A DNA stretch of 64,000 nt from a phage. Of this stretch, positions 43,358-64,000 are shown in pieces (the stretch's first letter is position 1; the number at the start of each line of letters is the position of its first letter). A program made the translations under genes and the position numbers. The notes below the pieces were generated by a model. It was given only the letters and a program-made list of their open reading frames with translations, was not told the DNA's origin and made no database searches. The stretch lies in NCBI GenBank assembly GCA_012813795.1, contig GCA_012813795.1_4087.1. One strand, given 5' to 3'.

Positions 43358-43385
43358 CATTATATCACATCGTTCAGGCTTGTCA
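43358..43385 (-). promoter_or_regulatory. consensus sigma70-like promoter (TTGACA-N16-TGATATAAT), proximal copy
   Basis: Minus strand reads TTGACA AGCCTGAACGATGTGA TATAAT; upstream of the AAA-ATPase/vWA operon. Confidence 0.65.
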
Positions 43386-43451
43386 ACAACTTTTTTTTCT
43401 TTCTTTTTCAATCTCACATCTTGTGATTTTGAAATCTTGCTTCGTGACGTT

Positions 43452-43479
43452 CATTATATCACGTTAATCTGTACTGTCA
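43452..43479 (-). promoter_or_regulatory. consensus sigma70-like promoter (TTGACA-N16-TGATATAAT), distal copy
   Basis: Minus strand reads TTGACA GTACAGATTAACGTGA TATAAT; in tandem about 94 bp upstream of the proximal copy. Confidence 0.65.
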
Positions 43480-43544
43480 ACATCTTTTTCATTTTTATTT
43501 TCGAAGCGTTCTACATATGCATCGAAAATAACTGCTTGAAATCA

Positions 43545-61497: not shown

Positions 61498-61900
61498 TTA
61501 CGTAATCCTCATACTGTTCGTATACACGCATTATACTCTGATATGTCACAAAGTCAATACCAAAGGTATCATCAATGAACTGATATTGCATAAACTCTTC
61601 CTCGGTAGCACCAATAGGAAGTGTGCCGTTTCGTTGATCGTTTGATTGAACATCTTCAATGTACATCAAACCTATACTTTCATCTAAAGTGATATCTATC
61701 ATAAAAACATCTTCACTATAAAACATGTTATATGAACGGATGAAAAGATTACCAGTTCTATCAAAACTTGATACATGTGTTTCAACGTAGGTTCTATCTA
61801 AACTAAAGAATAAACCAGTACCATCGGGTTTTCGTTGGTCTTTCAATTTAATTTCGATAGCATCAAATATCGGTTTAATATTAAACTTTTTCATAAGCAA
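61484..61900 (-). CDS. hypothetical protein, tandem paralog B
   Basis: 138 aa; C-terminal half (QYQFIDDTFGIDFVTYQSIMRVYEQYE) parallels paralog A. Confidence 0.45.
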   Translation of the reverse strand: MLMKKFNIKPIFDAIEIKLKDQRKPDGTGLFFSLDRTYVETHVSSFDRTGNLFIRSYNMFYSEDVFMIDITLDESIGLMYIEDVQSNDQRNGTLPIGATEEEFMQYQFIDDTFGIDFVTYQSIMRVYEQYEDYVIGRY

Positions 61901-62076
61901 ATCACATACTTATTACTATGTGGATCGTAACAGTAAGAGTCGTTCACCTTAATGCCAGGTTTGAGTTCCAGGGTTGTACCCATTTCAGTACTGGGTTCTG
62001 CATCACAATAAATCATCACACCAATGCCACCGAGTAAGGCTATGATACATATAACTGCACCTATTGTATATTCCAT
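61891..62076 (-). CDS. small predicted membrane protein
   Basis: ORF track start 62079 is GTG; ATG at 62076 has an AGAGGT RBS. One hydrophobic segment (AVICIIALLGGIGVMIY). Confidence 0.4.
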   Translation of the reverse strand: MEYTIGAVICIIALLGGIGVMIYCDAEPSTEMGTTLELKPGIKVNDSYCYDPHSNKYVICL

Positions 62077-62093
62077 CACTATACCTCTGTTAT

Positions 62094-62179
62094 AAAAAGT
62101 AATTATACATTTTATTGTACAATATAAAAAGGTCTTAAAAAGTAATTATACATTTTATTGTACAATATAAAAAGGTCTT
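62094..62179. repeat. perfect 43-bp tandem direct repeat, two copies
   Basis: AAAAAGTAATTATACATTTTATTGTACAATATAAAAAGGTCTT at 62094-62136 and again at 62137-62179; spans the 3-prime end of ORF 62112-62525 and the region upstream of the small membrane protein gene. Confidence 0.9.
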
Positions 62180-62525
62180 TCACATTATCATAAGTAATGT
62201 TAGATAGATCATAAATCAATGATAACTGAAAAAATGAAGCTTCGTCTATATCTACTGGGATTATAACATCATCATCTTCTGCCATTTTATTATCGTAGTA
62301 TTTTATGTGGTCTTCATTAAACTCAATAGAGATTGATACTGCGTTGGATTTCATATCTTCAATTAATCCAATCAAATTAGATTTATCATTAATAAAAAAT
62401 CCAATTCCAACCCTACGGTCATCTGGATATGGATAGTACCATCTATTAAATACTAGACTATCTGGTAAATCAACATCATGTGTTGATACGAGAGATTTTA
62501 CAATTTCCATCCAAGCATAATTCAT
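62112..62525 (-). CDS. hypothetical acidic protein
   Basis: 137 aa; 3-prime end overlaps the 43-bp tandem repeat; RBS GGAG. Confidence 0.45.
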   Translation of the reverse strand: MNYAWMEIVKSLVSTHDVDLPDSLVFNRWYYPYPDDRRVGIGFFINDKSNLIGLIEDMKSNAVSISIEFNEDHIKYYDNKMAEDDDVIIPVDIDEASFFQLSLIYDLSNITYDNVKDLFILYNKMYNYFLRPFYIVQ

Positions 62526-62540
62526 AATTAAAACTCCATA

Positions 62541-62567
62541 AGAAAAGGGACAGAAATAATCTGTCCC
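62541..62567 (-). terminator. hairpin terminator after hpf
   Basis: GGGACAG-AAATAAT-CTGTCCC followed by TTTTCT on the minus strand. Confidence 0.55.
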
Positions 62568-62576
62568 TTTGTTATA

Positions 62577-62909
62577 TTACTCTTCTTCGTCAGTTACATC
62601 AACTACAACTGGACGGTCTGGATGGTTTCGGTGGTGCAATTTAATGCTTTTGTCTTTACTGAATACAGTTTCCATTTTTTCGAATGAATCGACAATCGCC
62701 TTGTATAAATCTGCATCATCGGCAGTAACAGACTTACCACCTGATGTTAAAGTTACTGCGTACTGTGTCTTATGCTCTTTTTTCACATGAACACCAATAT
62801 TCAGTACTGAAGAATCACTAAATTTATTTAGAGTGTTTGCTTCTTGATGAATTGCGTCATGGATTGCTGGAGTAATATCAACATTACCTTGAATAACTAG
62901 ATTTAGCAT
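62577..62909 (-). CDS. hpf: ribosome hibernation promoting factor / RaiA-family homolog
   Basis: 110 aa; LNLVIQGNVDITPAI...VHVKKE...VTLTSGGKSVTADDADLYKAIDSF...KLHH follows the HPF/YfiA pattern as recalled from E. coli HPF; followed by a hairpin terminator. Confidence 0.75.
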   Translation of the reverse strand: MLNLVIQGNVDITPAIHDAIHQEANTLNKFSDSSVLNIGVHVKKEHKTQYAVTLTSGGKSVTADDADLYKAIVDSFEKMETVFSKDKSIKLHHRNHPDRPVVVDVTDEEE

Positions 62910-62923
62910 ACTTCACCTTCCTT

Positions 62924-63853
62924 TTATATTGAGCTTAACAAAGTATCCGCTCTGTTTGTTACTTGCCTATACCATAAGGAATTTTTGATTTCTCTTTTAA
63001 ACTTCTTATGATTTTCAGCTTCAGCACTTCTCCATAGTTTATTAAATGAGGCCAACTTATCAACACCCATCGTGTAAGCCATGTCAAAGAGAATACGTTG
63101 TTGGTCTTTTGTAAGATTTACTGCATTTTTTTTCTTCATTAGAGTTGTAAAGTCATTATATGTCCTTTTCAAATCTTGAAGTAATAGTTTATGTGCTTGT
63201 GCTTTGGTAATACCGTTTCTGTACTTAATTGCATCAGATTCACGTGGACCGAGGTAGTGACCATATGCGATTGTGTAGTTACCTTTCATATCCTTATAAG
63301 GATGAAATTTTGAATTGTAGAAAGGAACTCCAACTTTTCCCCCAAGTAAACGTCTTTTGTTCTTGGACTGAAATTCAATTGAACCTTCAGCTTCTTTGAT
63401 GTGTGCTACTATTTCAGGATCATTATAATCGAAAAGTACTACCACATCAGGTAACAGTACGTCTTTCAAATCCTCTTTTGTTGGGATAAAGATACCCTGC
63501 GATGTATGAAGTTTAGCATTAAGATTGATATTCTTCAATACTGTAACGTAATCATCTAACAACACATTATGCGGTTTAAACTTCTTAGCTATCGAATGAT
63601 AACTATCACCGTATTCAACAGTATAATGTTTCTCGCTGCCCGGAACTACTTTAGGTGTATACCCTTTGGGTAATTCCTGCTTTTGAATTTGTGTAACTTG
63701 CGGTTTTAAATTGTGCACCTGACTTTCGCCCGATGATGATGCACGACCATGATGAGAAAAACCATAAAAAAATCCAAACGCAGCGATGATAACAAGTGAA
63801 ACTAATAAGCCTATGGCTGTCTTAGTTTTAGGTGTTTGTATCGCTATTGTCAA
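62924..63853 (-). CDS. membrane-anchored LysM + T4-type (GH24) lysozyme (candidate signal-anchor endolysin)
   Basis: 309 aa; N-terminal hydrophobic segment (AIGLLVSLVIIAAFGFFYGF), LysM-like YTVEYGDSYHSIAKKF, C-terminal lysozyme motifs (EAEGS...YKDMKG...YTIAYGH...LWYRQVTNRA). Start is TTG with a GGAGG RBS 5 nt upstream. Confidence 0.7.
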   Translation of the reverse strand: MTIAIQTPKTKTAIGLLVSLVIIAAFGFFYGFSHHGRASSSGESQVHNLKPQVTQIQKQELPKGYTPKVVPGSEKHYTVEYGDSYHSIAKKFKPHNVLLDDYVTVLKNINLNAKLHTSQGIFIPTKEDLKDVLLPDVVVLFDYNDPEIVAHIKEAEGSIEFQSKNKRRLLGGKVGVPFYNSKFHPYKDMKGNYTIAYGHYLGPRESDAIKYRNGITKAQAHKLLLQDLKRTYNDFTTLMKKKNAVNLTKDQQRILFDMAYTMGVDKLASFNKLWRSAEAENHKKFKREIKNSLWYRQVTNRADTLLSSI

Positions 63854-63972
63854 AAACGCCTCCTTTGTTTGCGTGTTATGATGAGCAATTACAAAGAGGG
63901 CTTATGAGGCCATTTGCAAAAGCCTCATCGGACTTTCTACAATACTGAACTGTTCTTACTGAACATTTAAGT

Positions 63973-64000
63973 AGTATAGCATACTTTTTTGTTATATCAA
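63973..64000 (-). promoter_or_regulatory. sigma70-like promoter (TTGATA-N16-TGCTATACT) at window edge
   Basis: Minus strand reads TTGATA, 16-nt spacer, TGCTATACT; upstream of the LysM-lysozyme gene. Confidence 0.45.

Follow-up and report, generated by a model that had tools for sequence, protein, structure and literature searches.

Short tandem duplications that arise by slippage or illegitimate recombination are familiar in phages from the classical duplication and frameshift genetics of T4. In a second system, the promoter-early stem-loop (PeSL) cassettes of T4-type phages, short elements are said to mediate modular exchange. The locus described here lies in a window of 64,000 nucleotides of phage DNA, by which we mean the whole stretch that was analyzed, and it shares features with both of these systems as well as with a pair of duplicated early promoters found elsewhere in the window.

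Like the classical phage tandem duplications, the repeat at 62093-62179 consists of perfect head-to-tail copies, has a one-copy ancestor and places its second copy in a shifted frame, and it is unlike them in one unusual point, as the allele is common to many diverged genomes rather than confined to a single stock. It resembles PeSL cassettes in being a short conserved block that adjoins variable gene content, with mosaic breakpoints at the edge of the block, but it has no early promoter or stem-loop, is coding, and occupies a single locus instead of forming a dispersed family. A PeSL-like cassette was accordingly rejected (no promoter, fold z-scores of -1.1 to -1.6, one locus). With the duplicated early promoters of the window (43359-43386 and 43453-43480) it has in common that it is an A/T-rich tandem pair on the minus strand; those sites are, however, intergenic, about 75% identical and 94 nt apart, while the 43-nt unit is coding and lacks an acceptable -35 element. 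We propose that the repeat is probably an inherited tandem duplication, 43 bp in length, of the 3′ coding end of a gp534-family gene, neutral or nearly so and spread by recombination, a reading drawn from sequence comparison that we favor with good though not full confidence.

Genomic context

The closest phage record to positions 61000-63000 is Escherichia phage A4 (98.8% identity, full query covered), and 36 phage records match this segment, all of which belong to the genus Asteriusvirus wherever a genus is assigned. By these matches, the source of the window is an Asteriusvirus jumbo coliphage of the 121Q/PBECO4 group. In annotated relatives every gene of this stretch lies on what is the minus strand of the window, in the following order.

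Lysozyme gene, minus strand: first in the local order
62577-62909, minus strand: HPF/RaiA-like gene, the 5′ neighbor of the gp534 homologue
62544-62570, minus strand: terminator-like hairpin that separates the HPF/RaiA gene from the gp534 homologue
62112-62525, minus strand: homologue of 121Q gp534, 137 aa, phrog_36582, function unknown
61891-62076, minus strand: homologue of 121Q gp535, 61 aa, with an N-terminal hydrophobic helix, phrog_4189
61484-61900 and 61075-61497, minus strand: two paralogous genes of about 140 aa, downstream of the gp535 homologue
60941-61063, minus strand: 40-aa gene, after the paralogue pair
60313-60939, minus strand: endonuclease-like fragment, an ORF of 208 aa
CCA-adding enzyme gene, minus strand: last in the local order, after the endonuclease-like fragment

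Phage G17 has a terminator annotated at the position equivalent to the hairpin, and an E. coli assembly at NCBI includes a contig of 357,761 bp that encodes a protein identical to the gp534 homologue of the window.

Gene content around the repeat varies in several ways. Of the HNH endonuclease family phrog_953, only the C-terminal half (profile positions 198-402 of 420) is represented in the 208-aa ORF. The slot that it occupies, between the CCA-adding enzyme and 40-aa genes, holds an unrelated 355-aa gene in A4 and is empty in 121Q, so that, as judged from gene content, this is a slot that takes varying mobile cargo. Both of the adjacent paralogues match phrog_20693, and they are 42% identical in their C-terminal part. 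At least seven relatives carry two extra genes, encoding 123 and 41 aa, which are placed precisely in the interval from the stop codon of the gp534 homologue to the start codon of the gp535 homologue.

123-aa and 41-aa gene insertion: EC.P1 (L005), 1122-1618; also in L006, L007, L008, L010, L013 and L014; window equivalent about 62077-62092

To judge from the length of their matches, CMSTMSU and Turkey5 probably have this insertion as well. The inserted 41-aa protein is 68% identical to the product of the 40-aa gene of the window, and hence small two-gene modules seem to have been duplicated and lost at this locus.

Structure of the repeat and its effect on the reading frame

Tandem Repeats Finder reports the array at 62093-62179, with a period of 43, 2.0 copies, 100% matches and a score of 174, as the top-scoring tandem array of the window. 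It comprises the two copies, with no spacer between them, and one extra matching base. The sequence-only reading had already recognized a perfect 43-bp tandem repeat, which is confirmed, although the array begins at 62093, one base before the 62094 given there. It had also raised the prospect of further copies of the unit, but neither the window nor the A4 genome has any: even when up to 3 mismatches are tolerated, the 43-mer is confined in the window to 62093-62135 and 62136-62178 (0.00 expected, 100 shuffles), and an 87-nt query found one place only in A4, so that the unit does not belong to a dispersed repeat.

On the coding strand the unit reads AGACCTTTTTATATTGTACAATAAAATGTATAATTACTTTTTA, and it corresponds to the final 43 coding bases (…KDLFILYNKMYNYFL) of the gp534 homologue, or about its last 14 codons. 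The repeat had been placed between the stop of the ORF at 62112-62525 and the membrane-protein gene, but the upper 68 nt of the array (62112-62179) are inside that ORF and only 62093-62111 are non-coding. An intergenic element is thus ruled out, as the unit is the coding end of the gp534 homologue. The parts of the array and its stop codons are as follows.

62136-62178, minus strand: gene-proximal copy, in the ancestral frame, encoding (K)DLFILYNKMYNYFL
62093-62135, minus strand: gene-distal copy, frameshifted, its first 21 nt encoding RPFYIVQ
62114-62112, minus strand: new stop codon TAA, directly after RPFYIVQ
62093-62111, minus strand: non-coding remainder of the distal copy, 19 nt
62090-62092, minus strand: ancestral stop codon TAA, the stop of every one-copy relative; in the window it is out of frame and no longer serves as a stop

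As 43 exceeds a multiple of three by one (3 x 14 + 1), translation enters the distal copy with its register shifted by one base. The new stop lies 22 nt upstream of the ancestral TAA, and the duplication adds the seven-residue tail RPFYIVQ, giving a protein of 137 rather than 130 aa with the C-terminal peptide …MYNYFLRPFYIVQ. The family profile, phrog_36582, is 126 positions long, covers residues 6-130 of the 137 and ends in …YFL, which indicates that the last seven residues are outside the family and are the product of the duplication. In one-copy phages (121Q, G17 and others), (K)DLFILYNKMYNYFL is followed by TAA and the gp535 start lies 13 nt later, the ancestral arrangement thus being …YFL-TAA and then directly the ribosome-binding site of gp535. 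With the duplication the untranslated spacer before the gp535 homologue grows from 13 to 35 nt, and the GAGG ribosome-binding site (62085-62088) and ATG (62076) of that gene are unaltered. Microhomology at the duplication end points amounts to only 1 nt, the 87th matching base. The region also contains a 9-nt direct repeat, CTTTTTATA, which predicts an event of 32 nt and not of 43 nt.

Distribution of one-copy and two-copy forms

Among 35 phage-collection records that contain the unit, one copy is present in 30, two copies in five (A4, BF17, vB_Ec-M-J, EC.P1 and WPEC5) and three copies in none. The two-copy isolates come from Ireland, Poland, China and Thailand. In a protein search, eight clusters proved to have the extended protein and five the short one, and the contigs behind these clusters yielded six further two-copy assemblies, namely four E. 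coli-associated contigs from NCBI (GCA_011911785.2, GCA_025677605.1, GCA_973721985.1 and GCA_036253495.1), a MEGAHIT k141 contig and another metagenome scaffold. The five phage records, the six genome and metagenome contigs and the window make up the 12 two-copy assemblies considered here.

All 12 have the same junction, TTTTTA/AGACC (the slash marking the joint), which implies a single origin. The two copies differ from each other at 0-2 positions within an assembly, and the tail of the extended proteins is RPFYI(V/G)Q throughout, RPFYIGQ being found in one carrier only. The duplication junction had no match in IMG/VR or in the GTDB genomes, the unit itself was found in IMG/VR only in 121Q, and the complete RefSeq E. 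coli genomes that were searched gave no match.

These assemblies also bear on whether the second copy was produced by assembly and the phage truly has one copy, a concern that had been raised from the sequence alone. Two pairs of contigs could be read in this way: L016 (Logan, one copy) and L018 (NCBI, two copies) have no substitutions in 3393 nt besides the 43-nt gap, and L017 (Logan, one copy) and L021 (NCBI, two copies) have none over more than 1.3 kb around the repeat. The one-copy Logan contigs derive from the runs SRR9693738 and ERR10789687. The two-copy form is, however, present in 12 assemblies from different groups and sample types (phage isolates, NCBI E. coli-associated contigs and metagenome contigs), and an identical junction in assemblies of such independent sources excludes a spurious duplication, so that we regard a true one-copy state of this phage as extremely improbable. 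Assemblers are prone to collapse the copies of tandem repeats rather than to invent them, and Logan assembly presumably used k = 31, which is below the 43-nt unit length and makes collapse likely. In the Logan contig L019 (SRR30543657, about 1891-1921) the second copy is 12 nt shorter and its TATAAT is gone; here only 25 nt are repeated, which is resolvable at k = 31, and the second copy was retained, with the encoded 137-aa protein unaffected by the deletion. On the basis of the assumed k and of this shortened, retained copy, assembly collapse is the probable explanation for the one-copy Logan contigs, the alternative being true instability of the repeat. De Bruijn assembly with k below 43 may therefore collapse the repeat, in which case a protein of 130 instead of 137 aa is predicted.

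Tests for a promoter, operator or RNA element

The sequence-only reading had pointed to TATAAT-like and TACAAT elements in the unit and suggested a duplicated promoter or operator. The elements themselves exist, with TATAAT at 62102-62107 and 62145-62150 (minus strand) and TACAAT at 62118-62123 and 62161-62166 (plus strand); the suggested function found no support. A promoter within the unit, or one created by the junction, would imply that two-copy phages transcribe the membrane-protein gene, and what lies downstream of it, more strongly. A perfect TATAAT is indeed present on the coding strand in both copies, the junction creates TTAAGA-18-TAAAAT at 62138-62109 (a 9/12 match in which the -35 is formed by the junction), the terminator-like hairpin upstream of the gp534 homologue means that downstream genes might need a promoter, and the conservation of the block at 62084-62249 is unusual. 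The TATAAT of the unit is, however, the codon pair Tyr-Asn of the conserved C-terminus, and the best -35 hexamer located 16-18 nt upstream of it is TTTTTA, a 3/6 match, so that it is not called by our sigma-70 scan; at least 4/6 at that distance would be expected of a promoter of this type. The two scan matches that overlap the repeat are weak (9/12 each), and promoter-like sites across 59000-64000 are at the level of shuffled sequence (24 found vs 25.1 +/- 5.4). Moreover, the 12-nt deletion in L019 removes the distal TATAAT, changes within the unit in phage JNE01 are mostly non-synonymous, as expected of plain coding sequence, and the real early promoters of the window have a perfect consensus with an extended -10, unlike the unit. 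Taken together, we consider a promoter role quite unlikely.

The early promoters just mentioned, at 43359-43386 and 43453-43480 on the minus strand, are two perfect TTGACA-N16-TATAAT sites with a TGn extended -10 that lie 94 nt apart in an intergenic region; 0.25 such sites would be expected. They are part of a family of 51-nt repeats that are about 75% identical and are, from their sequence, the real candidate for a duplicated early promoter in the window. Strong sigma-70-like matches also occur inside the 3′ ends of the two paralogous genes, TTGACT-16-TATACT at 61151-61124 in the gene at 61075-61497 and TTGACT-16-TATAAT at 61557-61530 in the gene at 61484-61900, and the second-longest run of identity to BF17 (61144-61194) overlaps the first of these.

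For related phages, TATAAATA and TGAAACG-type motifs have been predicted (PMC5259590). The T4-type late promoter motif TATAAATA or ATAAATA is absent from the unit, which has TATAATTA (7/8), and the TGAAACG-type motif is absent from the region. Across the 64 kb, TATAAATA occurs once on both strands together (54679-54686), as compared with 8.4 +/- 3.0 expected and at least one occurrence in 100 of 100 shuffles; the octamer is thus strongly avoided in the window.

An operator or iteron array was rejected as well. The palindrome ATTGTACAAT, with up to one mismatch, has 7 matches vs 8.9 expected, which means that it is not over-represented, it is broken in JNE01, and there are no copies of the unit elsewhere in the window or A4. 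Folding of the region as RNA gave z-scores of -1.1, 0.0 and -1.6, all within the range of shuffled sequences, and a search of Rfam gave no family at or near the gathering threshold. In the literature we found no Asteriusvirus transcript map and no description of the 43-bp repeat.

Conservation, age and spread of the duplication

The most conserved part of the locus includes the repeat. Comparison of the window with BF17, from which it diverges by about 20% over 2.4 kb, reveals an identical run of 166 nt, the next longest being 51 nt.

62084-62249, minus strand: most conserved block, 166 nt, covering both copies plus 70 nt of the coding sequence before them

Mean pairwise identities among the 12 two-copy genomes and among one-copy genomes are as follows.

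Block 62084-62249: 98.1% (two-copy), 93.5% (one-copy)
gp535 homologue: 85.5% (two-copy), 92.2% (one-copy)
5′ part of the gp534 homologue: 91.0% (two-copy), 89.2% (one-copy)
HPF/RaiA-like gene: 92.3% (two-copy), 82.9% (one-copy)

In one-copy phages, too, the 3′ 120 nt of the gene are the most conserved stretch of the locus (93.5% vs 83-92%), and by these comparisons the end of the gp534 homologue is in general better conserved than any other part of this mosaic, indel-rich locus. Over the last 40 codons pS and pN are both lower, pS only about 2-fold and in divergent pairs. The reduction of both makes the constraint look mainly protein-level, and there may be an overlapping nucleotide-level signal in the conserved 3′ coding end.

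By the same identities the two-copy haplotype is younger than the sequence that flanks it, and of the earlier suggestion that perfect identity reflects recent duplication or functional constraint, the duplication proved to be real and recent in this relative sense. The haplotype is found on at least five distinct flanking backgrounds. The contig L023 combines it with a 121Q-like downstream flank, while in EC.P1 and WPEC5 the two copies are followed directly by a two-gene insertion, which Ecwhy_1, ph0011, JNE01, fEgEco12 and Turkey3 carry next to a single copy. All four combinations of presence and absence of the duplication and of the downstream two-gene insertion are found. A block of 98% identity on flanks of 85-92% fits one origin and spread by recombination. 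We also considered the repeat as a scar of the neighboring two-gene insertion and rejected this, as the unit does not flank the insertion, which is found next to one copy as well as next to two.

Between the window and A4 there are about 14 differences in the 200 nt of the gp535 homologue at 61897-62090 and only one in 60941-61896. The divergence from A4 stops at the edge of the repeat, which suggests that the divergent part of the gp535 homologue is a recombination patch.

A young haplotype on diverged flanks could also be expected if the duplication were adaptive, its spread by recombination being favored by a benefit of the changed C-terminus or of the changed distance to the next gene. One young haplotype, 98.1% identical and with the same junction, is present on at least five backgrounds, and the RPFYIVQ tail has been kept in all carriers but the one with RPFYIGQ. 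As noted above, however, the block is also the most conserved in one-copy phages, and shuffling at a conserved recombination anchor would give the same pattern without selection. In addition, about two thirds of known sequences retain one copy, and the gp534 homologue is of unknown function and has no match among Pfam, PADLOC and PDB profiles. Its AlphaFold model (11 sequences) has a mean pLDDT of 57 and is too poor for a fold search. We judge a benefit of this kind to be unlikely. The same holds for a broader proposal based on these comparisons, in which the conserved 3′ block would be a recombination anchor beside a variable gene slot and the two-copy allele would have been favored and swept horizontally across Asteriusvirus; this, too, we think improbable. 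If there had been such a sweep, the advantage could be the seven-residue tail, a promoter born at the junction, or altered coupling to the membrane-protein gene.

Origin and significance of the duplication

We return to the preferred reading, a neutral or nearly neutral tandem duplication spread by recombination. In one event of origin, replication slippage or illegitimate or unequal recombination would have duplicated the gene end, which is now read through into the second copy in the other frame, generating RPFYIVQ and an earlier stop. Homologous recombination through the conserved block would have carried the allele among Asteriusvirus lineages, and the duplication would have no dedicated regulatory function and would be neutral or nearly so. 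The repeat is an ordinary structural polymorphism among Asteriusvirus phages. Its biological weight is small, that of a copy-number polymorphism in a gene of unknown function, and its use is as an allele marker for mosaic recombination among the 121Q-like jumbo coliphages.
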